A stretch of DNA of 64,000 nt from Candidatus Hydrogenedentota bacterium. GTDB lineage: Bacteria > Hydrogenedentota > Hydrogenedentia > Hydrogenedentales > SLHB01. The stretch lies in NCBI GenBank assembly GCA_045863335.1, contig BTVY01000012.1:1-64000 (forward strand). The letters run 5' to 3'. Below, in pieces: positions 7,103 through 63,568 of the stretch. Numbering within the stretch: the stretch's first letter is position 1; each line of letters starts with the position of its first letter. A program made the translations under genes and the position numbers. Under the pieces are notes generated by a model that did no database searches, was not told the origin of the DNA, and worked only from the letters and a program-made list of their open reading frames with translations.

Positions 7103-7424
7103 CCTATACTTCTGTTTTGCCAAACCCAAATTCAGCAGACCTTGCGTCGCAAACACCTAAATTTCAATACTTTACAAAAATGACGCAACCCTTCCCAGAA
7201 ATCGCGCCCATAACACCGAGTACTCCCTCAATCTCCACATATTTCCCCTCTTCGATGCCGACGCCTATTCGAAGGTTGATTTGCTGGCCTTGGGCGACAT
7301 GACCGGGGTCCTGATGGAGGTGGTGGAACTCCTCACGTCTGATGTTACGATTGGTCGCCTCCGCAGTCGATCGGCTCCCTGCATGAGCTAGTCGGGTTGA
7401 ATGCGGTAAGAAACGCGGGCTACC

Positions 7425-16342: not shown

Positions 16343-16499
16343 GACGATTGGCCTCCAACCCAAGCCCTTGGAGAATCCGGCAACCGTTTGGCTGTCCGGC
16401 TCCCGGGGCGTAACCCCCACAATCCCTTGGGGTTCCTCCATCTGCCGCAACGTTCGCGCAAGATGTGCGCACTAACGTTAACTTATTGTACTGTACGAA

Positions 16500-16528
16500 A
16501 TTATAGCCACAGTCCTGCACCGGTTCAA
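16500..16528 (-). promoter_or_regulatory. sigma70 promoter for the MBL-AraC operon
   Basis: Minus strand TTGAAC (16528-16523), 17 bp spacer, TATAAT (16505-16500); its -35 abuts the -35 of the rpoN promoter. Confidence 0.65.
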
Positions 16529-16557
16529 TTGACAGGTTCCGGATTGTGGAGTATAAT
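16529..16557 (+). promoter_or_regulatory. Perfect-consensus sigma70 promoter of rpoN
   Basis: TTGACA (16529-16534), 17 bp spacer, TATAAT (16552-16557). Confidence 0.88.
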
Positions 16558-16572
16558 GGCACGTGACTTGCT
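16557..16572 (+). promoter_or_regulatory. sigma54 -24/-12 site overlapping the rpoN sigma70 -10/start
   Basis: TGGCACG-TGAC-TTGCT matches TGGCACG-N4-TTGCW exactly. Confidence 0.88.
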
Positions 16573-16594
16573 TGCAGGGAAAGGGTTTAGCGCT

Positions 16595-18028
16595 ATGATG
16601 CATATGGAGCACCGGTTGGCTCAGACGCAAACGCAGCGTCTGATGCTGACCCAGAAGATGCAGCAAGCGATTCATATACTCCAGTTGTCGGGAATTGAGC
16701 TCGAGCAGTACGTCCAACAAGAATTGGAAACCAACCCGGTCCTGGACCAGCTTCAGAAGGAAGCCAAACCGGAACCGGAGGCCAAATCCGAAGCCACCAC
16801 GACCTCGGATGGGGCCAGCGTAGACGACAGTTCGTTCAATCTCGACGACTACGCCAGTATGTGGACCGACTTTCGCCGCGAGGGTACGGATTTCTCCCGG
16901 AATCCGGATCTGGCCCAGCAACGGGACTACTACCAGAATTCCATCACGAAAGAAGAGTCCTTCACGTCCATGCTGCTGACCCAGCTTCGGCTGGCGGCAC
17001 CGGACGAGAAGTCCTACGAGATTGGCGAGCACATCATCGGCGATATCGACTCGAAGGGGTATTTCACGGGCGATATCGACGATATCGCTCAAACCCTGAA
17101 CGTAACGCCGGCCGAGGTGGAGCGGGTCCTGTACCGGGTGCAGCGATTCGAGCCGACAGGGGTCGGGGCGCGGGATATCATCGAATGCCTGCTGTTGCAG
17201 ATCAATGTGGAGTATCCCGACGAACAGGAACTGAAGACCCTCGTTTCCGAACATCTCGAGGCGCTGGAGCACCGGCAAATCCCGAAGATCGCCAAGGCGA
17301 TGAACATCACGCCGGAGCGGGTGGAAGAACTGAAGGAGATGTTGTCGACGCTCGATCCGTGGCCTGGATTGGAGTACTCGTCGGACCCGCCGCAGTACGT
17401 GACGCCAGACGTAATCGTGGAGAAGATCGACGAGGAGTACGTGGTCTACCTCTCCGACGAGAGCGTGCCGGAACTGCGCATCAACGGCGACTACCGGAAG
17501 ATGATGCAAAACGGCCGTGTCACGAAGGACGAGAAACAGTACCTCCGCGACAAGGTGGAGTCGGCGCGGTGGCTGATCCGCAATATTCAACAACGACAAC
17601 AGACCATCCTGCGCATTGCCAGCGCGATCGTGGAAGTGCAGGAAGAGTTTTTCGACAAAGGTATCGAAGCGATCAAGCCGCTGACCTTGCAGGAGATCGC
17701 CGATAAGGTGGGCGTGCACGAAGCGACCGTAAGCCGCACGACGCGCGGGAAATACATGCAAACGCCGCAAGGGCTCTTCGAAATGAAGTTCTTCTTCTCG
17801 CCGGGTCTCAAGCGGGACAGCGGCGACGCGCAATCGTCAAAAAGCGTGCAGTCGGTGATCAAGAAGATCATCGAAGAAGAGGACAAGTCCAAACCGCTTA
17901 GCGATCAGAAGATTGCCGACATACTGAAGAAGCAGGGCATCAACATCGCGCGCCGCACGGTCACCAAGTACCGCGAAGGGATGGGGATTCTGTCCACCAC
18001 GATGCGGCGCTCGTATCAGGACGCCTGA
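16595..18028 (+). CDS. rpoN: RNA polymerase sigma-54 factor
   Basis: Gln-rich region I (QTQTQRLMLTQKMQQAIHILQL), HEATVSR HTH, RpoN box ARRTVTKYRE. Confidence 0.97.
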   Translation: MMHMEHRLAQTQTQRLMLTQKMQQAIHILQLSGIELEQYVQQELETNPVLDQLQKEAKPEPEAKSEATTTSDGASVDDSSFNLDDYASMWTDFRREGTDFSRNPDLAQQRDYYQNSITKEESFTSMLLTQLRLAAPDEKSYEIGEHIIGDIDSKGYFTGDIDDIAQTLNVTPAEVERVLYRVQRFEPTGVGARDIIECLLLQINVEYPDEQELKTLVSEHLEALEHRQIPKIAKAMNITPERVEELKEMLSTLDPWPGLEYSSDPPQYVTPDVIVEKIDEEYVVYLSDESVPELRINGDYRKMMQNGRVTKDEKQYLRDKVESARWLIRNIQQRQQTILRIASAIVEVQEEFFDKGIEAIKPLTLQEIADKVGVHEATVSRTTRGKYMQTPQGLFEMKFFFSPGLKRDSGDAQSSKSVQSVIKKIIEEEDKSKPLSDQKIADILKKQGINIARRTVTKYREGMGILSTTMRRSYQDA

Positions 18029-38257: not shown

Positions 38258-38329
38258 GTAGCGCAGGCGTCCCCGCCTGCAATTCTTGGAAGTTAATGGG
38301 AAGAATGCAGGCGAGGACGCCTGCGCTAC
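38258..38329. repeat. Inverted pair of GTAG-type REP elements (REPIN-like)
   Basis: GTAGCGCAGGCGTCCCCGCCTGC ... GCAGGCGAGGACGCCTGCGCTAC, each with an internal GCAGGCG/CGCCTGC palindrome; between convergent genes. Confidence 0.85.
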
Positions 38330-44860: not shown

Positions 44861-45223
44861 ATGCAAATCCTTACCTACGTAATCGGCGGCGCAGCTGTAG
44901 TGCTTTTTGTTTGGATGTTGCGGCTGGCGTCGAAGGAGAATCTCATCCTCGCGCTGCTCGTGGGCGCGCTATGCACGATGTGCATCGGCTTCTATCCCGC
45001 GCTGCAGTTGTCCGGTTTCGGCGAGACCATTGCGGAAACTGTGCAAGGAGAAGAAGGGGTTGAAGTGGTCGCCGCGTCACCGGTGAGGAAGCCCCTATCC
45101 GTTGTCCTGTGGTTGATTCTGTTCGCGGTTCCGGGGCCGTTTCTGGCGGTGGCCGCGCAAGTGATCTTTCGATCGATCAAACGCGTCCGCTCGGCGGACG
45201 TTGATACGGGCAACACGCCCTGA
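44861..45223 (+). CDS. Small membrane protein (3 TM)
   Basis: GGAGG RBS; three hydrophobic segments; fills the gap between two oxidoreductases. Confidence 0.6.
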   Translation: MQILTYVIGGAAVVLFVWMLRLASKENLILALLVGALCTMCIGFYPALQLSGFGETIAETVQGEEGVEVVAASPVRKPLSVVLWLILFAVPGPFLAVAAQVIFRSIKRVRSADVDTGNTP

Positions 45224-45236
45224 AGGAGATGAAGTA

Positions 45237-46217
45237 ATGGCGAAGTTGGGGATCATGAGTTTCGCACACATGCATGCGTACAGCTACGCGGCAGCGATAA
45301 ACGAACTAGCGGAAGCGGAACTCTTCGCAATTTGGGACGATGATGCGGCCCGCGGCAAGGCGGCGGCGGATCAGTTCAAAGCGCCGTTCATGGCGAATAT
45401 GGATGCCTTCCTCGCCTCGGGTCTTGACGGGGTCATCATCTGTTCGGAAAACGTCAAGCACCGCGCCATGGTGGAAGCCGCTGCGAAAGCGGGCAAATGG
45501 ATTCTCTGTGAAAAGCCGCTTGCGACTACCATCGAAGACGCGCAGGCCATGATCGAAGTATGCAAGAAAGCGGGGGTCGGCCTGGGCACGGCGTTTCCGT
45601 GCCGGTACGTGGCGCCGCTCATGGCCGCCAAAGAAGACCTGGACAGCGGCCGGTTCGGGACCATCTATGCGGCCGCGTGCACCAACAACGGAAGCTTCCC
45701 CGGCGGGTGGTTCGCCGACGAGAAGCTTTCCGGCGGCGGCGCCACGATGGATCACACGGTCCACGTCGTAGACCTGTTGCGGTGGATGTTCGGGAAGGAA
45801 GTCACCAAGGTCTATTGCGAGAATGGTAACCTGATTCGCGAAGGCATCGGCACGGACGATGTCGGCAGCCTCCACTTCGAAATGGAAGGGGGCATCAAGG
45901 TATCCCACATCGCGAGTTGGAACCGCGCCAAGAGTTTCCCGACCTGGGGCGATGTGACCATGGAAATCATCGCCGAGAACGGCGTGCTCAATGTGGATGC
46001 TTTCAATCAGAAGGTAGACGTGTACAACGATACCGCCATGAAAGCCGAGTGGGTCTGCTGGGGCGACAATGCGGACCTGGGCCTGGTGCGCGACTTTGCG
46101 GCCGCCTGCGACGAAAAGCGCGATCCCGCCATCACGGGCTACGACGGCCTCAAGGCCGTGGAAGTCACCGTGGCCGCATATAAATCCGCCAAGTCGGGGG
46201 AAATGGTCTCCGTCTAG
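45237..46217 (+). CDS. Gfo/Idh/MocA oxidoreductase
   Basis: SFAHMHAYSY variant N-terminus, CEKP, GGGATMDHTVH; AAGGAG RBS. Confidence 0.92.
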   Translation: MAKLGIMSFAHMHAYSYAAAINELAEAELFAIWDDDAARGKAAADQFKAPFMANMDAFLASGLDGVIICSENVKHRAMVEAAAKAGKWILCEKPLATTIEDAQAMIEVCKKAGVGLGTAFPCRYVAPLMAAKEDLDSGRFGTIYAAACTNNGSFPGGWFADEKLSGGGATMDHTVHVVDLLRWMFGKEVTKVYCENGNLIREGIGTDDVGSLHFEMEGGIKVSHIASWNRAKSFPTWGDVTMEIIAENGVLNVDAFNQKVDVYNDTAMKAEWVCWGDNADLGLVRDFAAACDEKRDPAITGYDGLKAVEVTVAAYKSAKSGEMVSV

Positions 46218-46223
46218 AAACGA

Positions 46224-46325
46224 TTAGCCGCGAGAGAACGCAAAGAGCGCAAAAGAAGAGGAGGTAATTGCGGCTTCGCGACCTCCTCTCTTTTTTTCGC
46301 GTTCTTTGCGTTCTTTCGCGGCTAA
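46224..46325. repeat. Long palindrome with 9-nt periodic arms (copy 1, downstream of GxxExxY)
   Basis: TTAGCCGCGAGAGAACGCAAAGAGCGCAAAAGAAGAGGAGGT ... ACCTCCTCTCTTTTTTTCGCGTTCTTTGCGTTCTTTCGCGGCTAA. Confidence 0.92.
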
Positions 46326-46333
46326 ATTTCTTG

Positions 46334-46726
46334 CTAATCGAGTGGGGACTCGGTGGAACTCATGACGTATTTCTTGATCTGGAATTTGTAGCTACCGAAG
46401 TTGGTCAGCAGCCCGTGTTCGATCCTCGATGATTTGAGATAGCCCAGCAGTTGTGCGACGTGCTCGTCAGTGAGTTGTTTGCAGGCTTTGAGTTCGATGA
46501 TCAGCCGATCTTCCACAACGAGATCGGCAAAATACTCCCCCAGAACTGTTCCATCTTCATCAAATACGGTCAGAGGATGTTGCTGCCTTACGGTAAGACC
46601 TGCCTTCCGCAAGCGATGAAAGAGAGCATTCTCGTAGATCTTCTCGAGGTGTCCATTGCCATGATAGACATGAATCGCAAACGAAGTCTCACGGACAATA
46701 TCGCATAGCTCGTTGATGGTCTTCAT
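46334..46726 (-). CDS. GxxExxY protein (PD-(D/E)XK nuclease fold)
   Basis: GHLEKIY signature, ADLVVEDRLIIELK, QLLGYLK, GLLTNFG; GGAGGGG RBS; 130 aa. Confidence 0.93.
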   Translation of the reverse strand: MKTINELCDIVRETSFAIHVYHGNGHLEKIYENALFHRLRKAGLTVRQQHPLTVFDEDGTVLGEYFADLVVEDRLIIELKACKQLTDEHVAQLLGYLKSSRIEHGLLTNFGSYKFQIKKYVMSSTESPLD

Positions 46727-46763
46727 TCGTCTCCCCTCCTGTACTTGTCCTACATTCCTTCCA

Positions 46764-46866
46764 TTAGCCGCGAAAGAACGCAAAGAACACAAAAGAGGAG
46801 GAGGCGTACTGACACGATCTTCTCTTCTCTTGCGTCTTTTGCGTCTTTTGCGTTCTTTCGCGGCCA
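46764..46866. repeat. Long palindrome with 9-nt periodic arms (copy 2, upstream of GxxExxY)
   Basis: TTAGCCGCGAAAGAACGCAAAGAACACAAAAGAGG ... CTCTTGCGTCTTTTGCGTCTTTTGCGTTCTTTCGCGGCCA. Confidence 0.92.
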
Positions 46867-46873
46867 TTAATCG

Positions 46874-47710
46874 TTACGGCCATTCTTCGCGGCGGAAATG
46901 TTCGACGTAGCGGTCGCCGTCTTTCATGAGGCCCAGCGCCCATTGGCGGATGCCTTCGTAGGTCTCGTCGGACATGTCGGGCGTGTATTTGCTGAGGGAT
47001 GGTTCAAACTGGCTCACGTGGGCGGCGCTGGCTTTGACCTTCTTCTCAACGATATCCGTGATGTCCACCGTGTAGTTGGGCTCTTCCGTGTAGTAGTAGA
47101 AAGCAAGCGGAACGTGGTACGGCTTGAGTCCTTCGTCCAACAGATGCTGCGGATAATAGAGGTGCCACTCGCTGGCGATGAAGGCGTCCTTCGTGATGAA
47201 CGCGGCCATGCGGTGGTCGGTCTTGTGCCAGCGTTCGTGCGAGGTGCCGGGGTCGATGGTGAACACGGCGTCGGGCCGGTACTTCTTCATGAGCCGGCAG
47301 GCTTCGCCCCGGAGCACACGCGGGTCGGCGTATTCGAGGTCGCCATCTTCGTAGCCGAGCCAAATGATGTTCTCTTTGGGTATGCCGAGGATCTCACAGG
47401 CCGTTTCTTCTTCGGCGCGGCGGATTCTGGCTAAGCGTTCGCGGGTCATGTCCAGGTCGAGCGACCCCTTGTTGTCGTTCGTGTAGATGACCACGATGAC
47501 CTTGTTACCGTTCACCGCCAATATGGACATGATGCCGCCGCACAAGAAAGTGTCGTCGTCAGGATGGGGTGTGAAGACGAGGACCGTTTTCCCGGTCCAG
47601 GTCTCGATGCGACCTTCGGGTACGGCGGGATCTTCCTGCGCAGCGGCGATCGGAAGACCTGCAAGGCAGACGCAAACCAGGAGAATCGTGAAACTGGAAA
47701 GTCTCATCAT
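46874..47710 (-). CDS. Secreted PIG-L/LmbE family deacetylase
   Basis: Signal peptide; PHPDDD, RRAEE, DH, HVSQF; AAGGAG RBS. Confidence 0.85.
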   Translation of the reverse strand: MMRLSSFTILLVCVCLAGLPIAAAQEDPAVPEGRIETWTGKTVLVFTPHPDDDTFLCGGIMSILAVNGNKVIVVIYTNDNKGSLDLDMTRERLARIRRAEEETACEILGIPKENIIWLGYEDGDLEYADPRVLRGEACRLMKKYRPDAVFTIDPGTSHERWHKTDHRMAAFITKDAFIASEWHLYYPQHLLDEGLKPYHVPLAFYYYTEEPNYTVDITDIVEKKVKASAAHVSQFEPSLSKYTPDMSDETYEGIRQWALGLMKDGDRYVEHFRREEWP

Positions 47711-47939
47711 GGGGCACTCCTTTCTCATTGGACGCAAGAACGTTATGTAATCCGCGCCTCCGGTCACGCGATGCCGATCTGAGGCTCGGACCGGCGCCAG
47801 TCAACCTCTAAAAAGGCCTGACCGTTATCTTGTAACATGGCTGGCAGGGGGCGATATACTTAGAAGAGCGGTTTTTGTGCCGCGCTGTGACAGGCTGTGT
47901 CGTTCGTGTGAAGATTCGCATGGAAGAAGGAGTCGGATT

Positions 47940-49628
47940 GTGGGCATCCTGAAAAGCGCTCTGCTTTACGCAACAATCTGTCTGGCCGGTTTCGCTCTGG
48001 TTGGATGCGATTTGGACGGCGAAGGACTTAAGTGGGGTACGGCCGTTGCAGGCGATGACACTCCGGACTTCCCGGACGATGGTGGTGATGGCGGCGAAGA
48101 CCCGGGCGATGGCGGCGGTGGCAACGGGGGTGGCGGTGGAGGCGGCGGAGGCGGCACCGTAGATCGCCGCTTTGAAGGCACATGGATTGCCGCATTTGGC
48201 GACGACCTTCCCCAAGGCGCCGGGCGCAGACAACATGCGCTGCGATTGGTCTTGAACCAGACGAACGCGTCCATCACGGGCAACGGGAACGTGTTCCGGT
48301 TCTTCAACCAAGGTTCGAGTGCGTTCGACGCACAGCCATTCACGGTGCAAGTAACGGGCACGGCCAACGGCGATGACGCGGTGCTCACGCTGAGCGCCGG
48401 GAATCAATTCAACAACAATCCCAATCTGTGGCTGCGTTTGGCGGGTAGCCGCTTGGTGGCGCTGTACGCGGAACGAAATCCAAACCTCACGCTGGACCGC
48501 TCCGGGCATCTGGTCTTCCACCGCGTAGGGACCACGGACATCGATCAAACCTGGGCGGCGGCGTTCAGCGATGACTTTGGCGCGGGTGGTGCCTTCGCCG
48601 CGCGGGACCGCACCGCCAGCATGACCCTTGCCGCCGCGGGAGATGGCGCGCTGAGCGGGCTCGGCGCGTATGTGGAGCAGCGGCCCGGAGACGTGGTGCA
48701 GGTATTGGATTTCGACGTGATTCAGGGATTCCTCAGCGGCACGCAGACGGAACTGCGATTCGGCAACTTCAATCCGGCATCCGGCGAAGCGGACTGGTTC
48801 GGCTATCACAGCGGTAGTGTCATCGTGGCGGCCTATGGACAGTTCAACAACTCCAACCAACTGGCCCGATTCGGCCACGCCACCTGGTACGACGCGGGGG
48901 ACCCGGAACCCGCGGATTTTGAACGGCAATGGGTCACTTCGTTCAGCGATGCGCGCGGCGCGGGCAATTTCGTTGCGGACTATTTGATGGTCATGTCCGG
49001 GGTGTCGGTAAGCGGTAACGCCGTGACCGGCACGGTCCGCGTGCTGGACGAGTCCGAGCCGTCCCCGGCATTTGCAAGCTATACCATCGAGAACGGGATT
49101 ATCGTCGGCAACGAGCTGGTCATGGACGCCGTTCGTTCGGGCCGGCGGTTCTCGTGGAACCTGCGCCTGGCGGGCCCGGTCCTCGTGGGCTCGTACCAGC
49201 AGTTCAACAGCAACGACCAGTTTGTCAGCAGCGGGGTCGCGGAATGGAGGTTCGGCCCGACGAACAGCCTGAGCGGCACCTACGCGGCGTCCTACTTCGA
49301 CGGTTCCACGACCAGCGGTTCGGAGAACCGCGCGAGCCAGCTTGCGATCATCACGATTGGCAACGTCGCCAACGACGGCACCTTCACGGGTACCGGGTCG
49401 GTGCGCCTCGCCGGAGAGCAGAACCGGCGACAGTTCGCCATCACCGGTATCGTCGGCAGCGACAACCGCATCGAGATCGCCTGGAGCGGCGCAGACCTCT
49501 TCGGCGACACCGTGTGGAATCTCCGCAAGGCAGGGACGTACCTGTTCGGGACGTATACGAATTTCGCATCGAACAATCAGACCGTTGAGTTTCAAGGCAG
49601 CGCCACGTTCCTACGCGGCAGCTCGTAA
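47940..49628 (+). CDS. Lipoprotein with Gly-rich linker and four tandem beta-rich repeats
   Basis: AGGAG RBS plus GTG; lipobox LVGC; about 120-aa repeats starting FEGTW, IDQTW, FERQW, LSGTY. Confidence 0.75.
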   Translation: MGILKSALLYATICLAGFALVGCDLDGEGLKWGTAVAGDDTPDFPDDGGDGGEDPGDGGGGNGGGGGGGGGGTVDRRFEGTWIAAFGDDLPQGAGRRQHALRLVLNQTNASITGNGNVFRFFNQGSSAFDAQPFTVQVTGTANGDDAVLTLSAGNQFNNNPNLWLRLAGSRLVALYAERNPNLTLDRSGHLVFHRVGTTDIDQTWAAAFSDDFGAGGAFAARDRTASMTLAAAGDGALSGLGAYVEQRPGDVVQVLDFDVIQGFLSGTQTELRFGNFNPASGEADWFGYHSGSVIVAAYGQFNNSNQLARFGHATWYDAGDPEPADFERQWVTSFSDARGAGNFVADYLMVMSGVSVSGNAVTGTVRVLDESEPSPAFASYTIENGIIVGNELVMDAVRSGRRFSWNLRLAGPVLVGSYQQFNSNDQFVSSGVAEWRFGPTNSLSGTYAASYFDGSTTSGSENRASQLAIITIGNVANDGTFTGTGSVRLAGEQNRRQFAITGIVGSDNRIEIAWSGADLFGDTVWNLRKAGTYLFGTYTNFASNNQTVEFQGSATFLRGSS

Positions 49629-49635
49629 GGATTCT

Positions 49636-49682
49636 GTCCATCGGATCGGACCGATTCGACTAATCAGTCGGATCCGTCTGAC
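49636..49682. repeat. 9-bp periodic repeat (ATCGGACCG ATTCGACTA ATCAGTCGG ATCCGTCTG)
   Basis: Same family as 39474-39514; right after a stop codon. Confidence 0.7.
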
Positions 49683-49757
49683 TGCTCCGGCGATGGTGCC
49701 GCGAAGCCTGTATCCTGGAGATAAATCCAGCCACTGCTCCAAAAAGGAAGTGCCCGA

Positions 49758-50585
49758 TTGTTCGATGATTTCATTCTTCCTGGCACACCGCCGGTCTTGT
49801 TCTGGACGTTCGTCGCTGTAGCCATCCTGATCCAGGGGATCAGCAAATCGGGGTTCGCGGGTGGCGCGGGCGTTTTGTCGCTGCCGCTCATGATGCTGGT
49901 GATGCCCGTGCAGAAAGTGGCGGCCATGCTGCTGCCGCTCCTGATCCTCTGCGACATGAACGCCATCTACCATCACCGGAACAACAAGGACTGGCGCGTC
50001 ATACGATCCATCTACATCCCCTGCATCGCCGGCATTCTGCTGGGCGCCGTCGTGTGGTGGTACATCGGACAAGGCGACGTCCAAGCCTACGCGCCGTATC
50101 TCAAGAAGTTCGTCGGCGCCATCGCAATCGTGTTTGTCCTGTACATCGTCGTTCGCGAAGCCGCCATGGAATGGGTCAGCCGGTACCGGCCCGGTCCGAA
50201 AGCCGCCATCGCCGCCGGAGTCTCCGCGGGGTTTTGTTCCACCATCGCCCACGCGGCGGGTCCCATTGTCGGGTTGTATATCTTCGCCCATGGACTGGGA
50301 AAATCATTGTTCGTGGGGACCGTGGCGTGGACCTTCACGCTCATCAACTTAACGAAGCTGCCCTTCTATTTTGCCGTAGGTCTGATCCAGCCCGATGTGC
50401 TGGCGTTGGATCTCGTGCTCGTACCGCTGATTCCGATCGGATCGTATCTGGGCAAGTGGATGCATCACCGCGTGCCGGAAACGCTCTTCAACCGAACCAT
50501 CGCGATATTGACGGTGCTGGCGGCGCTCCAATTGCTGTTCAATCTCGACGTGATTGGGGTGGTTCTGCAAACCATAACCCCATAG
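49758..50585 (+). CDS. Sulfite exporter TauE/SafE family membrane protein
   Basis: GISKSGFAGGAG, LLPLLILCD, HAAGP, NLTKLPFY; about 8 TM. Confidence 0.88.
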   Translation: MFDDFILPGTPPVLFWTFVAVAILIQGISKSGFAGGAGVLSLPLMMLVMPVQKVAAMLLPLLILCDMNAIYHHRNNKDWRVIRSIYIPCIAGILLGAVVWWYIGQGDVQAYAPYLKKFVGAIAIVFVLYIVVREAAMEWVSRYRPGPKAAIAAGVSAGFCSTIAHAAGPIVGLYIFAHGLGKSLFVGTVAWTFTLINLTKLPFYFAVGLIQPDVLALDLVLVPLIPIGSYLGKWMHHRVPETLFNRTIAILTVLAALQLLFNLDVIGVVLQTITP

Positions 50586-50778
50586 AGGCCAGTGGTGAAT
50601 GTGGTCACTACAGGCCGATTTCATAATACGCATTAATCTCGAATTAATATACTTTTGCACCTATCGCGACTAGCCAAACACCGGATTTGCGGGGTACAAT
50701 CCTCTTGTTAGCGAGACCGGGGATCGCTATCTCTGTTGGATTGGGTAAACACATCTGGGGGACGAAGGAGGCAGATCC

Positions 50779-51672
50779 ATGCTCGGGTTCCAATCACGGT
50801 TCAAGATTCTATCGTTAATCTGTTTTGTCGCGCTGGTCCTGGCAATCGGTAGCGGGTGCCCCAGAACCGTTCCGACGGGTAAGGCCAAAGTGACGACCGC
50901 CTTTACGGCAGACTCAGGGTCATTCAAGAATGCCCTTGTCAAGGCGTTGAGCACGGAGAAAGCCGTTGTTGCCATTGACGATGTTTATAGCTTGACGGTT
51001 ACTATCGACGAAATCGCCCTGGACCATGACAACGATGATGCCGAAGAAGAAGAGGGAGACGACGACAAGGCAAACAAGGCGAAGGTCGTCGTATTCACCG
51101 GCCCGCTGGACGTCAATCTTCTCGACTTGACGGCGGTATCCGAGGCGCTGTCGACGGCGGAAGTACCAGCCGGAACGTACACGAAGATACGGCTGGCGAT
51201 AAGCAATCCGCGCTTGGTGTTGAATTCGGATCCCAACACCGAAATCACGAACATTAAACTCACGGCGAACGGACATCTGTTCATCAATCAAACGTTCACC
51301 TTGCAGGACGGGGAGCAGAGTCTTCTTCTGCTCGACTTCGGCGGAATCCATCTCGTGCAGAACGGGAATGGCCGGTATGTGCTGACCCCGCAGTTACAGG
51401 CCGACCTGACGCAAATGTCTGCCGATGTAATGGCCAGCGGTGAGATCGCCAATCTGGACATGGACGCGGACCTGTTCACGTTGCTGTTGATGGACGGCGA
51501 ATTGGAGGTTGACTACAGCACGGCCGCAATCTTCCTGGAAACGGATACCGACACGGCGACAGGCACCGAAGCCGATCTTGCGGACGGCCTCATGGTCGAA
51601 GTGACGGGGCTGTTGCAGGTGGACGGATCCGTCGTGGCGAGTTCGGTCCGGATACTGCCGGCCGCTCCGTAA
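50779..51672 (+). CDS. Lipoprotein, DUF4382-like plus C-terminal DUF5666-like domain
   Basis: AGGAGG RBS; lipobox GSGC; VNLLDL, VPAGTYTKIRL, LLDF, LTP; LADGLMVEVTG. Confidence 0.7.
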   Translation: MLGFQSRFKILSLICFVALVLAIGSGCPRTVPTGKAKVTTAFTADSGSFKNALVKALSTEKAVVAIDDVYSLTVTIDEIALDHDNDDAEEEEGDDDKANKAKVVVFTGPLDVNLLDLTAVSEALSTAEVPAGTYTKIRLAISNPRLVLNSDPNTEITNIKLTANGHLFINQTFTLQDGEQSLLLLDFGGIHLVQNGNGRYVLTPQLQADLTQMSADVMASGEIANLDMDADLFTLLLMDGELEVDYSTAAIFLETDTDTATGTEADLADGLMVEVTGLLQVDGSVVASSVRILPAAP

Positions 51673-51698
51673 CACGAACCAGAATCCCGACTCCTTTT

Positions 51699-51732
51699 GC
51701 GGGGAGTAGCCCTTGCGGCTGCTCCCCGTTTT
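51699..51732 (+). terminator. Intrinsic terminator
   Basis: GCGGGGAGTAGCC-CTTGC-GGCTGCTCCCCGT followed by TTT. Confidence 0.8.
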
Positions 51733-51841
51733 CATTTTCCGCGAACAGGAGGCGACACGTTCACTTGTATTGCTACGTTGACGGCGGATCGGAGAGTTGC
51801 CATCATATGCGGCGTACGCCAATCAGTAACAGGGGCCAGTC

Positions 51842-53617
51842 ATGACCGCAATACTCATCCTGTCGGCAACAATGTTCGCGGCGCCGTCCGAAATCGTCTA
51901 TTTCGATATGCAGCAGTGTCTGGCGGAACTGCCGGACGATTCGGTGCTGCGGTACGACGCAGTGAAACTGGTCGCGTCGCTGCAAGGGCTCGTCAACCGC
52001 GAGGAACCGCGCCTCGTCATCCGCTTTCTGGCCGGGCCAGGCCCCGAGGGCGCGATCAACATCGACGACTATTGGCTCGCCCGGATGCAGAAAGGCTGGT
52101 TGAAGGAACTTCCGGTTCGGCGCATGGCGTCGCTCGACGACCTGCTCGCCCACTTCGAAGCGGACCTGCGGGGCGTCGTCGTGTGGGATCCGAGAGTCGT
52201 CGCGACGGCCAATGTGGCGGCGACGATTTGCGGCGTGGAAGGTTGGTTGCCGGTCCGCGCGGACTCGGCCCTGTACGCGCGCATCGTGGATGGCGGACCG
52301 CATTCGCCGGTGAAGATGTCGCTCGTCGATACGTTCGACGGGGCGCGAAGCGGGAGCGCCAAGTGCGACGCGTATCTCTGGGCGAAGGAGGAGTATCTGG
52401 ACAAGGGCCGCTGCAATCCCGAGTTGATGGCCTACTACATCGACGCCTATTCGCAACAACCGGACAAGCCGGGATTTCATTACCACGATCTGCACAACGC
52501 GACGCTTGCGAACCACGACTACTACATCGCGAACCGTGCGTTCTTTTTCGATCTGGGCCCCTGGGCCGACGAGGTCCCCGTCGACGATCCTGGCCAACCG
52601 CTTGGAACGGATCATGCCACGTTGCTTGCGCTGCTCCGTTCCCAGTACGGGCAGAACCAGGGAAAGGCTTTTACGACGGTCGGCGGTTTCGTGCCGTGGA
52701 ACCTGAAGTACACGAACCACGGCCCCGCCGGGGGCACGCATGAACCGGTGCCCACGGAATGGGAGTACGCGGCCATCCTGTCGGCGCACAACGCCATCAT
52801 GGACGCGGATGCGCTCGGTCTTTCGTGTATGACGAATGCGTCCGCTTACATGCACTACCCGTTGAACCGGCGCTACAAGCAGAATATTCGTCCTGAGCCG
52901 CAGCCATTGGAGAAGAAGACCTACGTGCTCGTGTACATGGGTGATTACGATTCGGCGGCGTGGCTATCGACGCATATTCCGTCCGTATGGGACGACTCCG
53001 TGCGCGGGGAGTTCCCCATCGCGTGGGCCTTCAATCCGAATCTCGCCGCGCGCGCGCCCTACGTATTCGACTATATCTACGCGACGAAATCGGCCAACGA
53101 TTGGTTCATCGCGGGCGATTCGGGCGCGGGATACCTCAATCCCAATCTCCTCACCGGCGACCGGCTCGGCAGCGGCTTGCCGGACGCGCTCGATCTGTGG
53201 GTGAAGCACAACCGCGCGTGGTATCAGCGGTTCGATTATTCCATTACCGGATTCGTCATCAACGGCTTCCACGGCGACATGCCGCTACGCGTCCAAGAAG
53301 CCTACGCACAATTCTCACCCGACGGGGTAGGTATGCAATTGGGGTTCGTGAAGCCCCTCGTGAACGGGACGCCCTTCGTCCGCCACGTGAGCGACATTTA
53401 CCCCAAGCGCGACAACCTCGCGGCGACGGCGGCCGAGATGGCCCGATTCGCGAAGCCGGAGAAGCCGCAGTTCCTCATCTACCGCATGATCCTGCAACGT
53501 CCGGAGACCCTCAAAGGCGTATACGATCACCTTCGCCGCGACTTTCCGGGCGAAAACTGGGAGATCTGCGACCCCTACACGTTCTTCGACCTGTACAAAC
53601 GATCGCTCCAGAACTGA
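51842..53617 (+). CDS. GxGYxYP family putative glycoside hydrolase
   Basis: SLQGLVNR, VVWDP, GDYDS, PIAWAFNP, DSGAGYLNP signature. Confidence 0.82.
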   Translation: MTAILILSATMFAAPSEIVYFDMQQCLAELPDDSVLRYDAVKLVASLQGLVNREEPRLVIRFLAGPGPEGAINIDDYWLARMQKGWLKELPVRRMASLDDLLAHFEADLRGVVVWDPRVVATANVAATICGVEGWLPVRADSALYARIVDGGPHSPVKMSLVDTFDGARSGSAKCDAYLWAKEEYLDKGRCNPELMAYYIDAYSQQPDKPGFHYHDLHNATLANHDYYIANRAFFFDLGPWADEVPVDDPGQPLGTDHATLLALLRSQYGQNQGKAFTTVGGFVPWNLKYTNHGPAGGTHEPVPTEWEYAAILSAHNAIMDADALGLSCMTNASAYMHYPLNRRYKQNIRPEPQPLEKKTYVLVYMGDYDSAAWLSTHIPSVWDDSVRGEFPIAWAFNPNLAARAPYVFDYIYATKSANDWFIAGDSGAGYLNPNLLTGDRLGSGLPDALDLWVKHNRAWYQRFDYSITGFVINGFHGDMPLRVQEAYAQFSPDGVGMQLGFVKPLVNGTPFVRHVSDIYPKRDNLAATAAEMARFAKPEKPQFLIYRMILQRPETLKGVYDHLRRDFPGENWEICDPYTFFDLYKRSLQN

Positions 53618-53718
53618 GCGGCGGAGGCCGGTGCCTGGAAATTGGGGCTGAGTCTGCCGGTTCCAGCATCGAGACGAGGTCAGCCGCAACGGCGAACGTG
53701 ATCTGAGAACCGGTATCG

Positions 53719-53739
53719 ATTTCAAATCTGAGATCTCAG
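53719..53739. repeat. Heptamer repeat remnant (ATTTCAA ATCTGAG ATCTCAG)
   Basis: 7-nt period; a further ATCTGAG at 53701. Confidence 0.45.
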
Positions 53740-53838
53740 ACTGGGAAAATGCGATACCAAGGCGTGTAGCCAGCGGGCGAAGGCTCGTTCGTTGCGAAGA
53801 ATTCTCCGGTCGACTCCACTGCAAAGGAAAGAAAAACA

Positions 53839-53917
53839 TTAGCCACAAAAGAACACATAGGACGCGAAAAGGAAAGAACAAGTTACTCTTGCGTTCTATG
53901 CGTTCTTTTGTGGCCAA
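53839..53917. repeat. Solo copy of the GxxExxY-flanking palindrome family
   Basis: TTAGCCACAAAAGAACACATAGGACGCGAAAA ... CTTGCGTTCTATGCGTTCTTTTGTGGCCAA. Confidence 0.88.
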
Positions 53918-54104
53918 AACACAGATGCAATAGGCATTGTAGATGAATATTTCCAATTCACTACGCGAAACTTGCAGGTTCCCATAGAAACCTGTATCCA
54001 AGAGGCGGGCCCGAGCGGCGGAGGCCAGTCGCGGGGCGTTCCGTTTTGTGCTAAGCTTTGGTGTGCGCTGGTTCCGGGATTTCTTCAACTGTCAGGAGTG
54101 TGCC

Positions 54105-55046
54105 ATGCCGTTATTCCGCCGTTCTTTCGTACTTGCCGTCCTTGCCTTCCTGTTCGTCGGGATTCTCCACGCACAGGAGAAGCACACGCTTCGCCTCAAT
54201 CTCGAACCGGGCCAGGAATTCCAACAGCGAATGGCGATGACTCAGACCATCGATCAGGTGATGAACGGCATTACGATTACGATGAACCAGGACATGACCC
54301 TCGACTACGCGTACAAGGTTACGGATCGGGACGCTGATGACGTGGCCACCGTCGAATGCACGTACCAACGCATCGCATCCAAGGTGAGCACGCAGGGGAT
54401 GGCGGTGTCGTACGATTCCGCGAATACAGACACGCCCGTTTCCGCGGAATTCCGGCCCATGGCCGCCATGGTGGGCAAATCGTTCACCATGCGGATCAGT
54501 CCACTGGGAACGGTCGAATCCACCGAAGGCTTATCGGAAATCCTGGACGCGGTCGTGGCGGAGATGTCGATGGAAGGCCCCGCGCGCGAGCAGGTCATCG
54601 CCAATATGAAGAACCAGTTCGGTGAAGAGGCCATGAAGGACTTGATCGAACAGGCAATGGCCATTTACCCGTCCGAACCGGTCGCGGTTGGCGACACGTG
54701 GAAGAAGACGCTGGACATTCGCCAAGTGGTTCCTATGCAGTTGGACAACACGTGGGTCCTGAAGGAAGTCAATAATGACACAGCAACCCTTGAAGTCACC
54801 TCGCTAATCGCCCCTCCCGGTGACGACACGAAGGTCGACATGATGGGGATGGAACTTGATGTGCGGCTCGAAGGCGCGCAAAGCGGCACCTCTACCATCG
54901 ATCGAAAGACCGGGTGGGTCGTTTCGAGTACCGTGAATCAGAATGTCGACGGCGAGATGGTCTTCCCGGCTGAAGCGGGGGCGCCGACAGGCATGACGAT
55001 TCCTATTGGGATTCGCAGCACGGTCGAATTGGGACCGGTGGAATAG
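54105..55046 (+). CDS. Secreted DUF6263-like protein
   Basis: AGGAG RBS, signal peptide; LRLNLEPG, YDS, VGKSFTM, YPSEPVAVGDTW, IDRKTGW. Confidence 0.7.
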   Translation: MPLFRRSFVLAVLAFLFVGILHAQEKHTLRLNLEPGQEFQQRMAMTQTIDQVMNGITITMNQDMTLDYAYKVTDRDADDVATVECTYQRIASKVSTQGMAVSYDSANTDTPVSAEFRPMAAMVGKSFTMRISPLGTVESTEGLSEILDAVVAEMSMEGPAREQVIANMKNQFGEEAMKDLIEQAMAIYPSEPVAVGDTWKKTLDIRQVVPMQLDNTWVLKEVNNDTATLEVTSLIAPPGDDTKVDMMGMELDVRLEGAQSGTSTIDRKTGWVVSSTVNQNVDGEMVFPAEAGAPTGMTIPIGIRSTVELGPVE

Positions 55047-60581: not shown

Positions 60582-63278
60582 ATGATTCGTGTATGTGCCG
60601 TACTGTGGATCGCCGGGCAAGTCGCGCTGGGCGCCGCGGTCGAAGAAGAAGTCGAAGTGCAGGGCAACTATTCCACGTTCCGCATCGCGCCGGGCCCGGG
60701 CGCTGGCGTGGAATGGTTCGGGTCGCCGGTATCCAACGTGAACCACGCGGGCGGCGAAGGGCTGCTGCTGGAAGGATTCGGCGTCGGTAATTTTTACGTG
60801 CCGAACCGCCGGCTTAACGAGAACCTCGAGATCGTGGATACCGCCGGCGGCGAGCCGGTTATTCGCTACAGCTACGAATGCGACGGCCCCAACATCCGCG
60901 GGCTCCACGTGACCCGCACGATGGAGCCTCAACCCGACGAAGCGTCTATTCGCGTAACCTGGAAGGTGGAGAACAAGGGCGACGAAGACCAATGGGTGTC
61001 GCCCTGGGTGCGAAACGAGGTCCGGCCCGGCGGTTCCACCGAAGTGCGGGACCGCATGGAACTGGCCACGTGGGAAGGCATCGTCAACGTCGAGCGGAGC
61101 GGCTATCACGTGGCGTCGCGAAATTGGGTCGCGGCCACCGATCCCGCGTCCAAGGAAACGCTCTACGCGGTGTTCGACGCGGACCAGACTCATTCCTTTC
61201 TAGTGAATCGCGACGAACAGGTCCCCTTCGGGGCCTTCCAGACCGCTTTCGTGCCGCGCCTGATGAAGGTCGGCGACGCGTGGGAGACCACGTACCGCGT
61301 AAATGTTGTGCGCGGACTCACCCATGTGAATTTCGCCACGGATGAGCTGGCGGCGCAGGTGGACTACGAGGCCGGCGAATTGAGTGTGTTGCTGGCGGCG
61401 GTGAAGCCCATGCCGGGGCTCCAGATCGAAACCAGCATTCTCGCGGCCAACGGCAAAGTCTGGCGGTTGCCGGAGAAAAAGTTCGACATCGACCCTAACA
61501 CCGTCATCCGGTGCACCTACGAGTGGCAAGCCCCGGGCAACGGATCCTACGAGTTGCTGGCGCGGGTCACGCGGGGCGGCGAGGCCGTCGCTCTCGGCAG
61601 CGATACGGGATCGCCCCACGGCGGCATCGACACCCAGTTTGTCGTGGGCGATATGGAAGCCGACGATTTCGAACCGTGGACCGATGCGCCGTTCGCGCTC
61701 GAACGGGGATCGCGCACCTTGCCGCGGCAGTTCGCGGTGCCCGGCGACACGGCCATCTGGTTTGAGAGTTCGCTGGAGAAGATCTTCCCGGAAGACGTTC
61801 CGCAGCGGACGGGCGACTACAAGGCCATCGCCAGCCTGTCGCTGGCGGCGAACGAAAGCGAATCATTCCAGGTCGTGCTGCGCCCTCCTGACGGAATGGA
61901 TCTCCGGAATGTGAACTTGCGCGCCGTGGACCTCGTAAACGCCGCCGCGGGTTCGCGCATCGCGTCATCGCAGATCAGCCTGCATACGGTGGCGTACTAT
62001 CCGGTGCGTATTCCGACGCATTTCGAAGGACCCACCGGCGTCTGGCCCGATGCCTTGCCCGAATTGGAGCCATTCACCGCACAAGGCGGCCAATGCAGCC
62101 CGATCTGGATCACCGTCCATGCGCCCGCAGGCACGCCGCCCGGCGCCTATGAAGGGTACCTCGAACTCACGGCAAATGGCCGCGACCCGGTCGAATTGGG
62201 ATTGCGGGTCAACGTGTACAACTTCGAATTGCCGCGCACGCCGCACCTCAAGACAGACTTCGGATTCTGGATCGATGGCGCGGATAGCCTGTGCCGCCGC
62301 ATGGGGTACTCTGGCAGCGCGGAACAGTTGTTGGACGCCTATCTCGAAAACGGATTGCGCCACAAGGTGACGCTGCGCGAATTGGCCCAGTTCCCGTCGG
62401 AGAGCGCGGATTACAAGGCCAGCCTCGCGATGTTCGAACCGAAGATCAGGGAGCTGATCGACGGCGGCGCGAGCACGCTATCGGTGCCGGCGTCGCTGTT
62501 CGAGTTCCCGGAGCAGCTCGCGGTGGCGAACGAGTTTGTAGAAAAGGCGAATCTTCGCGATCGCGTGTTCTGCCAGATCGCGAATGAGCCGGAACGCCCG
62601 GCTTGGCCGAGGCTGTTCGAAACCATGACGCAATGGCGGGAGATCGCGCCCAACATCCCGCTTATGCTGACGACCTACGGCTCGCAGCCCTTCTTCCACG
62701 AAGCGGCGGACGTCTGGGCCATCCACTCCCCCATCATGGATACGGTGAACAACAAGACCATCCTGGATCGGATCGCCGCCGGCAACGCCGTGTGGTGGTA
62801 CGTGAACCATACGCCGCCACGGCCCTACGCCAATTTCTTCATCGACTTCGCCGCCATGGAACACCGCGTGTTCTTCTGGCAGACCTGGGCCCTGGGCATG
62901 AAGGGCGTTCACTACTGGAACGCGAACTACAGCGAGCCCGGCGTGAATCCGTGGGTCAACCAGCTCGACATCACGCCCACCAACGGCGACGGATTCCTCC
63001 TCTATCCCGGACCGAAGGGCCCGGTTAGTTCGATTCGCTGGGAAGTCATCCGCGACGGGATCGAGGACTACGACTACCTCGTGCTATTTCGCGAACGCAT
63101 GAAGCAGCTCGAAGAAAAAGGCGGACACGCCGCCCTCCTGGAACAAGCCGCGGAAGTCTACAACCTGAAGGAACTCGTCCCCGACCTCGTCACCTTCACC
63201 CGCGACCCCAACGTCCTCATCAGCAAACGGGAAGCCCTGGCAAAGATGATCGTGGCCATGGACGAAGCCCTGCGGTGA
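60582..63278 (+). CDS. Secreted multi-domain GH123-like (DUF6067/DUF4091) protein
   Basis: ANESESFQV, WPDAL, PIWITVHAP..TPPGAY, WWYV, GDGFLLYP, SIRWEVIRDGIEDYDY. Confidence 0.8.
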   Translation: MIRVCAVLWIAGQVALGAAVEEEVEVQGNYSTFRIAPGPGAGVEWFGSPVSNVNHAGGEGLLLEGFGVGNFYVPNRRLNENLEIVDTAGGEPVIRYSYECDGPNIRGLHVTRTMEPQPDEASIRVTWKVENKGDEDQWVSPWVRNEVRPGGSTEVRDRMELATWEGIVNVERSGYHVASRNWVAATDPASKETLYAVFDADQTHSFLVNRDEQVPFGAFQTAFVPRLMKVGDAWETTYRVNVVRGLTHVNFATDELAAQVDYEAGELSVLLAAVKPMPGLQIETSILAANGKVWRLPEKKFDIDPNTVIRCTYEWQAPGNGSYELLARVTRGGEAVALGSDTGSPHGGIDTQFVVGDMEADDFEPWTDAPFALERGSRTLPRQFAVPGDTAIWFESSLEKIFPEDVPQRTGDYKAIASLSLAANESESFQVVLRPPDGMDLRNVNLRAVDLVNAAAGSRIASSQISLHTVAYYPVRIPTHFEGPTGVWPDALPELEPFTAQGGQCSPIWITVHAPAGTPPGAYEGYLELTANGRDPVELGLRVNVYNFELPRTPHLKTDFGFWIDGADSLCRRMGYSGSAEQLLDAYLENGLRHKVTLRELAQFPSESADYKASLAMFEPKIRELIDGGASTLSVPASLFEFPEQLAVANEFVEKANLRDRVFCQIANEPERPAWPRLFETMTQWREIAPNIPLMLTTYGSQPFFHEAADVWAIHSPIMDTVNNKTILDRIAAGNAVWWYVNHTPPRPYANFFIDFAAMEHRVFFWQTWALGMKGVHYWNANYSEPGVNPWVNQLDITPTNGDGFLLYPGPKGPVSSIRWEVIRDGIEDYDYLVLFRERMKQLEEKGGHAALLEQAAEVYNLKELVPDLVTFTRDPNVLISKREALAKMIVAMDEALR

Positions 63279-63283
63279 AAAAT

Positions 63284-63359
63284 AGGGACAGGCACCATTT
63301 TCCTTCTCTGCGATCGAACATTTTCTCAGCGACCGAGTAGGAAAATGGTGCCTGTCCCT
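63284..63359. repeat. Perfect 21-bp inverted repeat element
   Basis: AGGGACAGGCACCATTTTCCT (63284-63304) / AGGAAAATGGTGCCTGTCCCT (63339-63359). Confidence 0.9.
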
Positions 63360-63426
63360 TTCTGTCCCGTTACCTGCGATCTTGACGTCCTCATCAGCAA
63401 ACAGCAAGCCCTAAAGATCGTTGCAC

Positions 63427-63568
63427 GTAGGAGGGCGGGTTTTCTTACCCGCCGCATTCGCAAGAAAGCACGAGGATCGGCTCTCAACGCGATCGCAATG
63501 CAAGAATCGGGAATTTGGCTTCGAGGGGCAAGCCTCAGCGCGGCGGGTAGGAAAACCCGCCCTCCTAT
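63427..63568. repeat. Inverted pair of GTAG-type REP elements (second family)
   Basis: GTAGGAGGGCGGGTTTTCTTACCCGCCGC ... GCGGCGGGTAGGAAAACCCGCCCTCCTAT, each with an internal GGCGGGT/ACCCGCC stem. Confidence 0.85.

Follow-up and report, generated by a model that had tools for sequence, protein, structure and literature searches.

What does a gene for a small nuclease-fold protein have to do with the repeat-built hairpins that bracket it? The question is raised by a 64,000-nt stretch of contig BTVY01000012.1 (assembly GCA_045863335.1, Candidatus Hydrogenedentota bacterium), hereafter the window, in which a gene for a 130-amino-acid (aa) protein of the GxxExxY family stands between two palindromes of about 100 bp, the whole cassette filling the space that separates an oxidoreductase gene from a gene for a PIG-L deacetylase. 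An earlier note on this DNA, made from its letters alone, had described the arrangement and proposed a spreading system akin to repetitive extragenic palindromic (REP) sequences and their REP-associated tyrosine transposases (RAYTs). We find that the gene and the repeat arms around it are physically and evolutionarily tied and form one evolving unit, whose usual form is a foldback of roughly 0.5 kb with the open reading frame (ORF) in the loop of an inverted repeat (arm–gene–arm'); the hairpin–gene–hairpin form of the window is a minority variant. No published description of such a gene cassette was found.

Gene and Arms Form One Evolving Unit

A search of species-representative genomes returned at least 599 matching stretches, 580 of which encode a relative, and the best 80 of these at least 599 stretches, each with 10-kb flanks, make up our locus set. 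The proteins of these 80 loci are 66–81% identical to that of the window, whose source genome lies outside the set, the closest locus being 81% identical. A hidden Markov model (HMM) built from 70 arm sequences gave 238 matches (E<0.1) in the 1,236,192 bases of the 80 loci and the window, and 167 of these matches fall no more than 250 nt from a GxxExxY gene, although only 5.8% of the sequence is that close to one. A comparison that makes no use of the HMM gives the same picture: an inverted repeat scoring at least 30 encloses 58 of 79 GxxExxY genes, as compared with 13 of 622 ORFs taken from those loci as controls. The enrichment of such palindromes beside GxxExxY genes had been anticipated, as had a co-variation of repeat and protein, which is seen in a correlation of arm similarity with protein similarity (Mantel r=0.50, a value equalled in 0 of 2000 permutations; 0.46 once kin at the same site are removed). 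Arms also fit their own partner at 24.8 of 30 positions, compared with 20.7 when partners are swapped, a native value that none of 10,000 permutations reached.

The association extends to arms that stand apart from any gene. Arms more than 260 nt from a gene have a similarity of 0.85 to the gene-linked arms of their own locus and of 0.78 to those of other loci, and 28 of the 70 arms at this distance find their best match within their own locus. Solo arms beyond 1 kb of a gene occur at about 44 per Mb. The gene-less solo copies that had been postulated from the window thus exist, and they resemble the arms of the resident gene. Among more distant members of the family (31–43% identity, n=7), found by tblastn on plasmids and secondary replicons, three have strong spanning repeats composed of other sub-repeats with the same 9-nt period (Bacteroides finegoldii, of the CACAGAGGA type; Sphingomonas, of the CGCGAAGG type; and Bernardetia), one has a weak spanning repeat, two have flanking direct repeats and one has none.

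Protein databases hold a further trace of the arms. The best 120 homologous proteins are 72–91% identical to the window protein, and in 17 of 20 of them, picked mostly for extra length, the ORF is extended by translated arm, for example with a C-terminal ...LFALSAFFRG or an N-terminal ...AAKERREHK...; TTTGCGTTCTTTCGCGGCTAA translates as F-A-F-F-R-G-stop. Because these extensions are literal translations of the arms, the same arms must adjoin the gene in many genomes. Many database GxxExxY proteins reach 145–155 aa only because the predicted ORF continues across the downstream arm, and they then end in ...FAFFRG, ...AFLRG, ...FFCG or the like. Such arm-derived tails are probably annotation artefacts and can now be recognised as such.

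Anatomy of the Unit

The usual flanks consist of a purine-rich arm with a consensus of about AATAGCCGCRAAAGAACGCARAGAACRCAAAGA, a few nucleotides before the ATG, and its complement at or just past the stop codon, so that the gene lies in the loop of one long inverted repeat. The arms are about 30–40 bp long, purine-rich and composed of 9-nt sub-repeats, with a lag-9 autocorrelation of 0.495 over 237 arms and 0.313 after shuffling. The plain arm–gene–arm' architecture was found in 30 of 82 gene copies, hairpin–gene–arm' in 7 and hairpin–gene–hairpin in 5 (the window and four others). In 16 copies, mostly from a clade with divergent GCCACGAAAAACACG-type arms, this HMM detected no arm, and the remainder of the 82 are mixed. 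Loop lengths separate gene-bearing from gene-less arm pairs in a bimodal distribution: the 37 gene-bearing pairs enclose 395–726 nt (395–497 nt in 35 of them), and the 58 gene-less, adjacent and convergent pairs enclose 5–126 nt in 55 cases and 152, 223 and 1477 nt in the others. The gene-less palindromes of 80–130 bp look like miniature derivatives of the gene-bearing unit, and they have properties of miniature transposable elements with inverted repeats (MITEs), namely terminal inverted repeats, no ORF, multiple copies and arms in common with a coding element.

In the window (Table 1), the left palindrome has 41-nt arms that are 83% complementary and 20 nt apart and folds as DNA at -45.6 kcal/mol (z -9.99), its arms matching the arm HMM with E=6.4e-6 and 1.7e-6. 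The right palindrome has best arms of 30 nt that are 90% complementary, folds at -30.5 kcal/mol (z -6.59) and matches with E=1.8e-6 and 7e-6; for neither palindrome did any of 200 shuffles equal the native fold. The left palindrome lies 8 nt from the stop codon and the right one 37 nt from the ATG. Tandem Repeats Finder reports a period of 9 in all four window arms with 2.0 to 4.0 copies, so the number of 9-mers varies from arm to arm; the right palindrome has four in its distal arm and two to three in the partner. Left and right palindromes resemble each other over 42 nt at 90% in one arm and over 28 nt at 89% in the other, their centres being unrelated, and their ends read ATTAGCC...GGCTAAA. 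The description of the window in the earlier note, with a 130-aa GxxExxY gene between hairpins of about 100 bp, tandem 9-mers of varying number, conserved arms and unrelated loops, is therefore accurate throughout.

The same repeat occurs elsewhere in the window. The 13-mer core AAAGAACGCAAAG has 10 matches in the window with up to 2 mismatches (shuffle mean 1.40; 0 of 100 shuffles reach 10), and a 15-mer has 5 (shuffle mean 1.18; 2 of 100 shuffles reach 5). A gene-less third copy, about 7 kb from the cassette and neighbored by a GxGYxYP-family gene and a DUF6263 gene, has 27-nt arms that are 89% complementary. The whole window contains eight close inverted repeats of at least 18 nt, three of which belong to this palindrome family. 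The GC content of the cassette is 0.48–0.50, about 10 points below the 0.596 of the window. In the minimum free energy (MFE) structure of the 661-nt transcript, arm 1 pairs with arm 4 and arm 2 with arm 3. The palindromes contain no terminator-like stem followed by a T-run, and the single promoter-like match falls inside the gene. A purine-rich GGAGGGGAG stretch 6 nt before the ATG is, from its sequence, probably the ribosome-binding site. Rfam searches of positions 45500–54500 gave no known RNA family and no rRNA match; the sub-threshold matches of the palindromes were eukaryotic microRNA-precursor models, which are generic long hairpins.

Table 1. The cassette, the third palindrome and the adjoining genes in the window
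Feature	Position	Strand	Basis
Left palindrome, downstream in gene orientation	46224..46325	.	Arms 46224-46264 and 46285-46325; fold, arm HMM, period 9
GxxExxY / PF13366 PD-(D/E)XK nuclease-fold gene, 130 aa	46334..46726	-	Profile matches, AlphaFold, Foldseek
Leader between right palindrome and ATG, 37 nt	46727..46763	-	Read from sequence
Right palindrome, upstream in gene orientation	46764..46866	.	Best arms 46767-46796 and 46835-46864; fold, arm HMM, period 9
Gene-less third copy, GCCACAA variant of arm start	53839..53917	.	Arm HMM E=1.3e-4, 0.018
GFO/IDH/MocA oxidoreductase, converges on cassette	45201-46217	+	Domain scan
PIG-L/LmbE deacetylase, codirectional with GxxExxY gene	46874-47767	-	Domain scan

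The Encoded Protein

The window protein matches PF13366 (PDDEXK_3) with E=9.2e-32 and 110.3 bits (cut-off 22) and TIGR04256 ("GxxExxY protein") with E=4.5e-34 and 117.3 bits (cut-off 35), and its translation contains the family motif as G25-H-L-E28-K-I-Y31. In a 36-sequence alignment (A1), D68 and E78 are invariant and K80 is nearly invariant. The AlphaFold model (predicted local distance difference test score 89) has an order of helices and strands that fits a minimal PD-(D/E)XK core, with D68 in strand 2 and E78 and K80 in strand 3. With both cut-offs exceeded and the motif and D...E-x-K placed on the core alpha/beta fold, the protein is a member of the GxxExxY/PF13366 family. The best Foldseek matches of the model in the PDB are nucleases of the PD-(D/E)XK superfamily, including Cas4 (SSO0001), the nuclease domain of AdnAB, Hjc junction resolvases of archaea and lambda exonuclease (E 1e-4 to 1e-2; template modeling scores 0.4 to 0.6), and by this model the nearest folds are those of nucleases acting on DNA ends and junctions. 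These nuclease folds, together with PF13366 as the sole Pfam match, agree with the proposal that the enzyme is not of the HUH type. When the family profile was run against the sequences of solved structures, no meaningful match emerged (best E 0.4).

The family is large, with 9210 clusters at 50% identity (E<=1e-3) or 1769 at the stricter threshold of 1e-10. A full-text literature search for GxxExxY, PDDEXK_3, PF13366 and TIGR04256 yielded incidental mentions only, with no function given, and a 2012 survey of the superfamily entered PF13366 as "unknown." Libraries of defence systems and phages gave only marginal partial matches (E about 1e-3).

Spread and Local Duplication

Flank similarity groups 81 copies into 64 contexts, and the unit has therefore entered many sites. 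The titles of the locus records span 10 phyla (Verrucomicrobiota, Planctomycetota, Kiritimatiellota, Nitrospirota, Chloroflexota, Cyanobacteriota, Acidobacteriota, Lentisphaerota, Hydrogenedentota and Thermodesulfobacteriota). Three hosts are isolates (Trichlorobacter thiogenes ATCC BAA-34, locus L007; Rhodopirellula sp. SM50, L025; and Pontiella sulfatireligans F21, L060); most are metagenome-assembled genomes (MAGs), so binning errors are possible. In the protein tree, 6 of 79 inner branches are starred, and the phylum labels change 20 times, where the minimum is 9 and shuffled labels give 29.4; transfer between phyla is beyond proof by this tree, which is too poorly resolved. Broken copies are few among the 82, namely one with an internal stop (L051) and one whose 3' end is broken (L077b); L054, with coordinates past the edge of its locus, gave no reading.

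Local duplication also makes copies, as seen in three loci. The entire element of L079 stands between two direct copies (9879-9923 and 10453-10497; 91%) of 45 nt from the 5' end of the host gene downstream. In L009, the 3' end of the gene and a solo palindrome are repeated together in a tandem duplication of 127 nt (90%; 10350-10616). Each of these two long duplications is a single case. In L069, tandem units of about 160 nt, each a solo palindrome with a conserved spacer, lie on both sides of the GxxExxY gene (7385-7760, 9638-9880 and 10510-10920), whose own arms are degenerate. In a fourth locus, L013 (6812-7280), an upstream reading frame enters the arm; the flanks resembled parts of what we take to be one Mg-chelatase/ComM-type gene, in which case the element would be inserted inside a gene.

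Function of the Unit and Alternative Explanations

The reading that we put forward, tentatively and with rather less than even confidence, is that the unit is an undescribed foldback cassette resembling the intervening sequences (IVSs) of 23S rRNA, in which the arms would be the cis-acting ends of the element, the nuclease would act on the structure that they form, the solo copies would depend on that nuclease, and processing of an RNA stem would be a second property. As single-stranded DNA or as a cruciform, the arms would fold back into a hairpin or a four-way junction; the encoded minimal nuclease, with a predicted fold nearest to Cas4, RecB-like enzymes and Hjc, would cut this structure; and the resulting break would start copying of the unit via repair or recombination, the solo palindromes being moved or maintained in trans. 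Where the unit is co-transcribed with host genes, the arms would form a long RNA stem, probably processed as in the 23S rRNA IVSs, and such processing would make insertion between genes harmless. The nuclease probably acts on its own arms, and such an action would amount to a new mobility mechanism.

A stronger claim is that the GxxExxY cassettes constitute a class of prokaryotic foldback transposon that is both new and autonomous, the sole enzyme of which would be a structure-specific PD-(D/E)XK nuclease of 125–130 aa that recognises the hairpin or cruciform of its own arms, with the solo palindromes as non-autonomous derivatives. We regard this as unlikely. Were it true, few known DNA elements that mobilise themselves would be as small as these cassettes, a family of more than 9000 protein clusters would acquire a function, and the four-helix-bundle "IVS protein" cassettes would be a sister class with the same arm logic.

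A number of observations weigh against a cassette whose nuclease works on its own ends. We know of no PD-(D/E)XK nuclease that carries out strand transfer alone. No target-site duplication could be defined; with the flanks of 37 elements set in register, no direct repeat was seen outside the arms, and the bases at the extreme ends (T-A/G/T, followed by GCC) behave as though they belonged to the inverted repeat. Long vertical persistence at fixed sites is not what a freely transposing element would show: in the cassettes between nuoJ and nuoK, the encoded protein has a mean identity of 86%, compared with 86% for NuoK and 80% for NuoJ, and its pairwise identities follow those of NuoK (rho 0.70). 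The solo copies in L069 spread by local duplication and not by transposition, since the tandem units include the spacer. Host genes next to the cassette tend to be codirectional with it (upstream 54 of 76, downstream 49 of 79; a crude call over the 80 loci), a mild bias. Genes for four-helix-bundle proteins, which are not nucleases, carry analogous sub-repeat arms in 3 of the 5 cases found in the loci, two of these three scoring near the background, so the architecture needs no nuclease. Finally, mismatches on the sense strand of the gene-spanning arms are of the G:T type in 50 cases and of the A:C type in 79, whereas the 20 solo palindromes give 32 G:U and 17 A:C cells counted from the pair table; with these opposite signs, neither RNA-level nor single-strand-specific selection is established.

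The four-helix-bundle genes came to light when a PF05635 gene surfaced among the control ORFs with strong spanning repeats. Those with sub-repeat inverted repeats of their own lie at L059:6302-6661 (PF05635), L059:13071-13451 and L048:2334-2717, the last two found by jackhmmer from the first.

The best-placed alternative, which we consider doubtful, confines the role of the arms to RNA. The arms would form a double-stranded stem that is cut or stabilised by host RNases, RNase III for instance, and that insulates the gene from the host operon; the nuclease would have no connection with the arms, and the unit would spread by ordinary recombination or transfer. The anatomy is close to that of the Coxiella IVS, which is cut by RNase III (PMC4990558), and RNase III cuts the terminal repeats of Correia elements in mRNA (PMC10969869). 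When the whole L007 element is folded as RNA, the MFE and centroid structures alike keep the terminal stem, which closes round the ORF, and the four-helix-bundle genes have the same architecture. The six annotated distant members are all codirectional with, and set by short gaps between, tightly packed host genes, such as the pairs fabD|fabG and radA|FAD-dependent protein. A codirectional upstream frame of at least 100 codons meets its stop within the outer 12 nt of the arm in 19 of 43 elements, and in 11 elements, 8 of them nuoJ|nuoK kin, the stop is the arm's own TAG. If the arms do act in RNA alone, the IVS principle would extend from rRNA to ordinary operons, and the harmless seats inside nuo and fab units would be explained. 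However, the excess of A:C-type over G:U-type mismatches in the spanning arms (79 and 50) is opposite to that expected of an RNA stem under selection, and the upstream neighbor is on the opposite strand in 22 of 76 cases. A role in RNA alone also gives no reason for strongly conserved catalytic residues, and it leaves unexplained why arm sequence tracks the protein subfamily and why solo copies accumulate that resemble the arms of the resident gene.

It is less likely again, and in our view improbable, that the cassette is a fixed gene kept by its hosts, mobile in the distant past, with arms that now serve as a translational or stability switch and solo palindromes that are decaying remnants or local duplications. 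The inner ends of the arms overlap the ribosome-binding region, which is the ground for supposing such a switch. Eight site groups are common to at least two species. The nuoJ|nuoK cassette is found in eight species of Verrucomicrobiota (L010, L011, L019, L032, L033, L036, L038 and L041; by flank similarity in L055 too), where it tracks the host genes and where the stop codon of nuoJ is supplied by the TAG of the arm. Over seven of these loci (all but L011), identity is 53% at third codon positions and higher, at 69% and 64%, in the two arms. Judged by these identities, some copies show vertical inheritance for long periods under purifying selection. The GC content of the gene is below that of its flanks in 80 of 80 loci (mean -9.6 points) yet follows that of the host (rho 0.64), as after long residence, and the L069 arrays are local tandem duplications. 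The site of the window may itself be conserved in relatives, as hinted by the GxxExxY homologues P0002 and P0003 (91% identical) and the PIG-L homologues P0124 and P0125, for which the longest contigs agree in length (50,019 and 87,712). Against a gene merely kept in place stand the 64 contexts among 81 copies, proteins 66–81% identical to that of the window in records titled as 10 phyla, the solo copies far from any gene (about 44 arms per Mb beyond 1 kb) and the two different copies that lie within 3 kb of each other in L077.

That the cassette is a strict analogue of REP/RAYT systems, each flanking palindrome being a recognised unit nicked as a single-stranded hairpin and the twin-flanked gene being the autonomous form, is very unlikely. 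The window and the four other plain copies (><G><) do have a complete palindrome on each side, and in the window and in L006 the two palindromes of the gene are alike up to the edge of the loop. Of the 82 copies, 5 have this twin form and 30 are plain arm–gene–arm'; none of the arms is palindromic in itself or has the GTAG or CGTC tag found in the REP superfamilies (PMC3733652); the true REP doublets of the window look different; and true RAYT genes with their REPs in L055 and L041 are unrelated in sequence. The earlier note was thus right about the linkage of gene and repeat, the gene-less copies and the non-HUH enzyme, and it erred on the anatomy, as a single split inverted repeat is the rule in place of the twin palindromes that it took for the functional unit, and on the REP/RAYT family. 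A cassette that is syntenic and fixed in relatives, which it had named as evidence against its own proposal, is seen at several sites, such as nuoJ|nuoK in 8 species. In integrons, attC core sites read RYYYAAC...GTTRRRY. We reject an integron-type cassette with attC palindromes for an integron integrase, for which there is next to no likelihood despite the hairpin–ORF–hairpin order, an ORF with no evident promoter and hairpins of about 100 bp with variable centres, since no integrase or other recombinase domain occurs among the 50 scanned window ORFs, the ends ATTAGCC...GGCTAAA do not fit the attC consensus, and most relatives have the ORF inside the hairpin loop, which attC does not allow; chance and host-REP readings were rejected as well.

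Genomic Neighborhood of the Cassette

The GxxExxY gene is the only one of its kind among the 50 scanned window ORFs. The nearest named relatives of the neighboring PIG-L protein are 94% identical and come from Candidatus Hydrogenedentota MAGs. The C-terminal codons of the PIG-L gene look like the start of an arm, and a derivation from the arm was considered and rejected: 4 of 10 homologues end in RFRREEWP like the window protein, and the other 6 end in close variants such as RYRREEWP and KFRREVEP. Elsewhere in the window, the longest ORF at 15284-18028 encodes a sigma-54 protein of 914 aa in which Sigma54 domains begin only at residue 444, reflecting either a long N-terminal extension or an over-called start. 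At 63277-63366, a hairpin of another sequence family, with 32-nt arms that are 88% complementary, begins at the stop of a GH123-like gene (60582-63278).

Comparison with Known Systems

With REP/RAYT systems and REPINs (PMC3116915, PMC3337134, 10.1101/2021.07.10.451892) the cassette shares a small gene flanked by its own inverted repeats, gene-less doublets that form hairpins (in the window, the third copy of Table 1), co-evolution of repeat and gene within genomes and long vertical inheritance. It differs in its enzyme, a PD-(D/E)XK nuclease in place of an IS200-like HUH Y1 transposase, and in its arms, which are tandem 9-mer arrays in place of self-palindromic REP units of 20–40 nt with a GTAG or CGTC head (PMC3733652); moreover, the GxxExxY gene is multi-copy and found in many contexts. 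The GxxExxY cassette is not a member of the REP/RAYT group. Classical REPs are found in the same window as REPIN-like doublets at 38258-38329 and 63428-63567, each arm a small palindrome with a GTAG head, and no Y1 transposase is present among the 50 scanned window ORFs. IS200-like Y1 (RAYT-type) genes flanked by GC-rich REP palindromes lie at L055:7833-8285 and L041:2451-2939, such that true REP/RAYT units co-occur with GxxExxY cassettes in these two genomes.

Free-standing homing endonuclease genes are likewise small nuclease genes that sit between host genes with tiny gaps, depend on host transcription and occupy the same junction in relatives. The cassette resembles them in being wedged between host genes with tiny gaps at a junction common to related genomes. 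Unlike them, it has 64 contexts among 81 copies in place of one cognate site, inverted-repeat arms, gene-less copies and purifying selection long after fixation. Eukaryotic Foldback transposons have long terminal inverted repeats of variable-number tandem sub-repeats and a variable middle with or without a coding region. The cassette has sub-repeat arms of variable number and a middle with or without a coding region in common with these elements, but it is prokaryotic and far smaller, and its protein is unrelated.

Among known elements, the closest in anatomy, by analogy, are the hairpin MITEs and the 23S rRNA IVSs with an S23p ORF. Like Correia/NEMIS and ERIC elements (PMC10969869), the solo copies are 80–130 bp long, have terminal inverted repeats and no ORF, are intergenic, multi-copy and sometimes clustered or nested, and could form RNase III-type stems if transcribed. 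Unlike these MITEs, they have a gene-bearing counterpart with the same arms that encodes a nuclease and not a DDE transposase, no target duplication could be defined for them, and their arms consist of 9-nt tandem sub-repeats. The main text of a large MITE survey (PMC11602168) contains none of the terms "PDDEXK," "endonuclease," "Verrucomicrob" and "Planctomyc."

The Coxiella IVS is a 428-nt element with a 28-bp terminal stem, a loop that holds an ORF for the four-helix-bundle protein S23p and, ahead of the ATG, a varying number of purine-rich heptamers in tandem, and it is excised by RNase III (PMC4990558). The GxxExxY cassette differs in lying between protein-coding genes, in the window those for the oxidoreductase and the deacetylase, where IVSs lie in helix 25 or 45 of the rRNA; in its cargo, a PD-(D/E)XK nuclease in place of a four-helix bundle; in its period of 9 in place of 7; and in its many gene-less copies. 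It shares with the 23S rRNA IVSs a size of roughly 0.5 kb, an inverted-repeat stem of about 28–35 bp round a small ORF and, just ahead of the ATG, short tandem repeats that are rich in purines and vary in number. IVSs are regarded as selfish elements of unknown origin that are vertical within lineages, which we count as a further likeness, and the four-helix-bundle (PF05635) genes of our loci show the same style of arm. A stem enclosing the ORF is present in 58 of 79 relatives; the window has the two-palindrome variant. Systematic wrapping in its own sub-repeats, gene-less arms in the same genomes and an IVS-like anatomy turn what was an anonymous annotation into a defined element.

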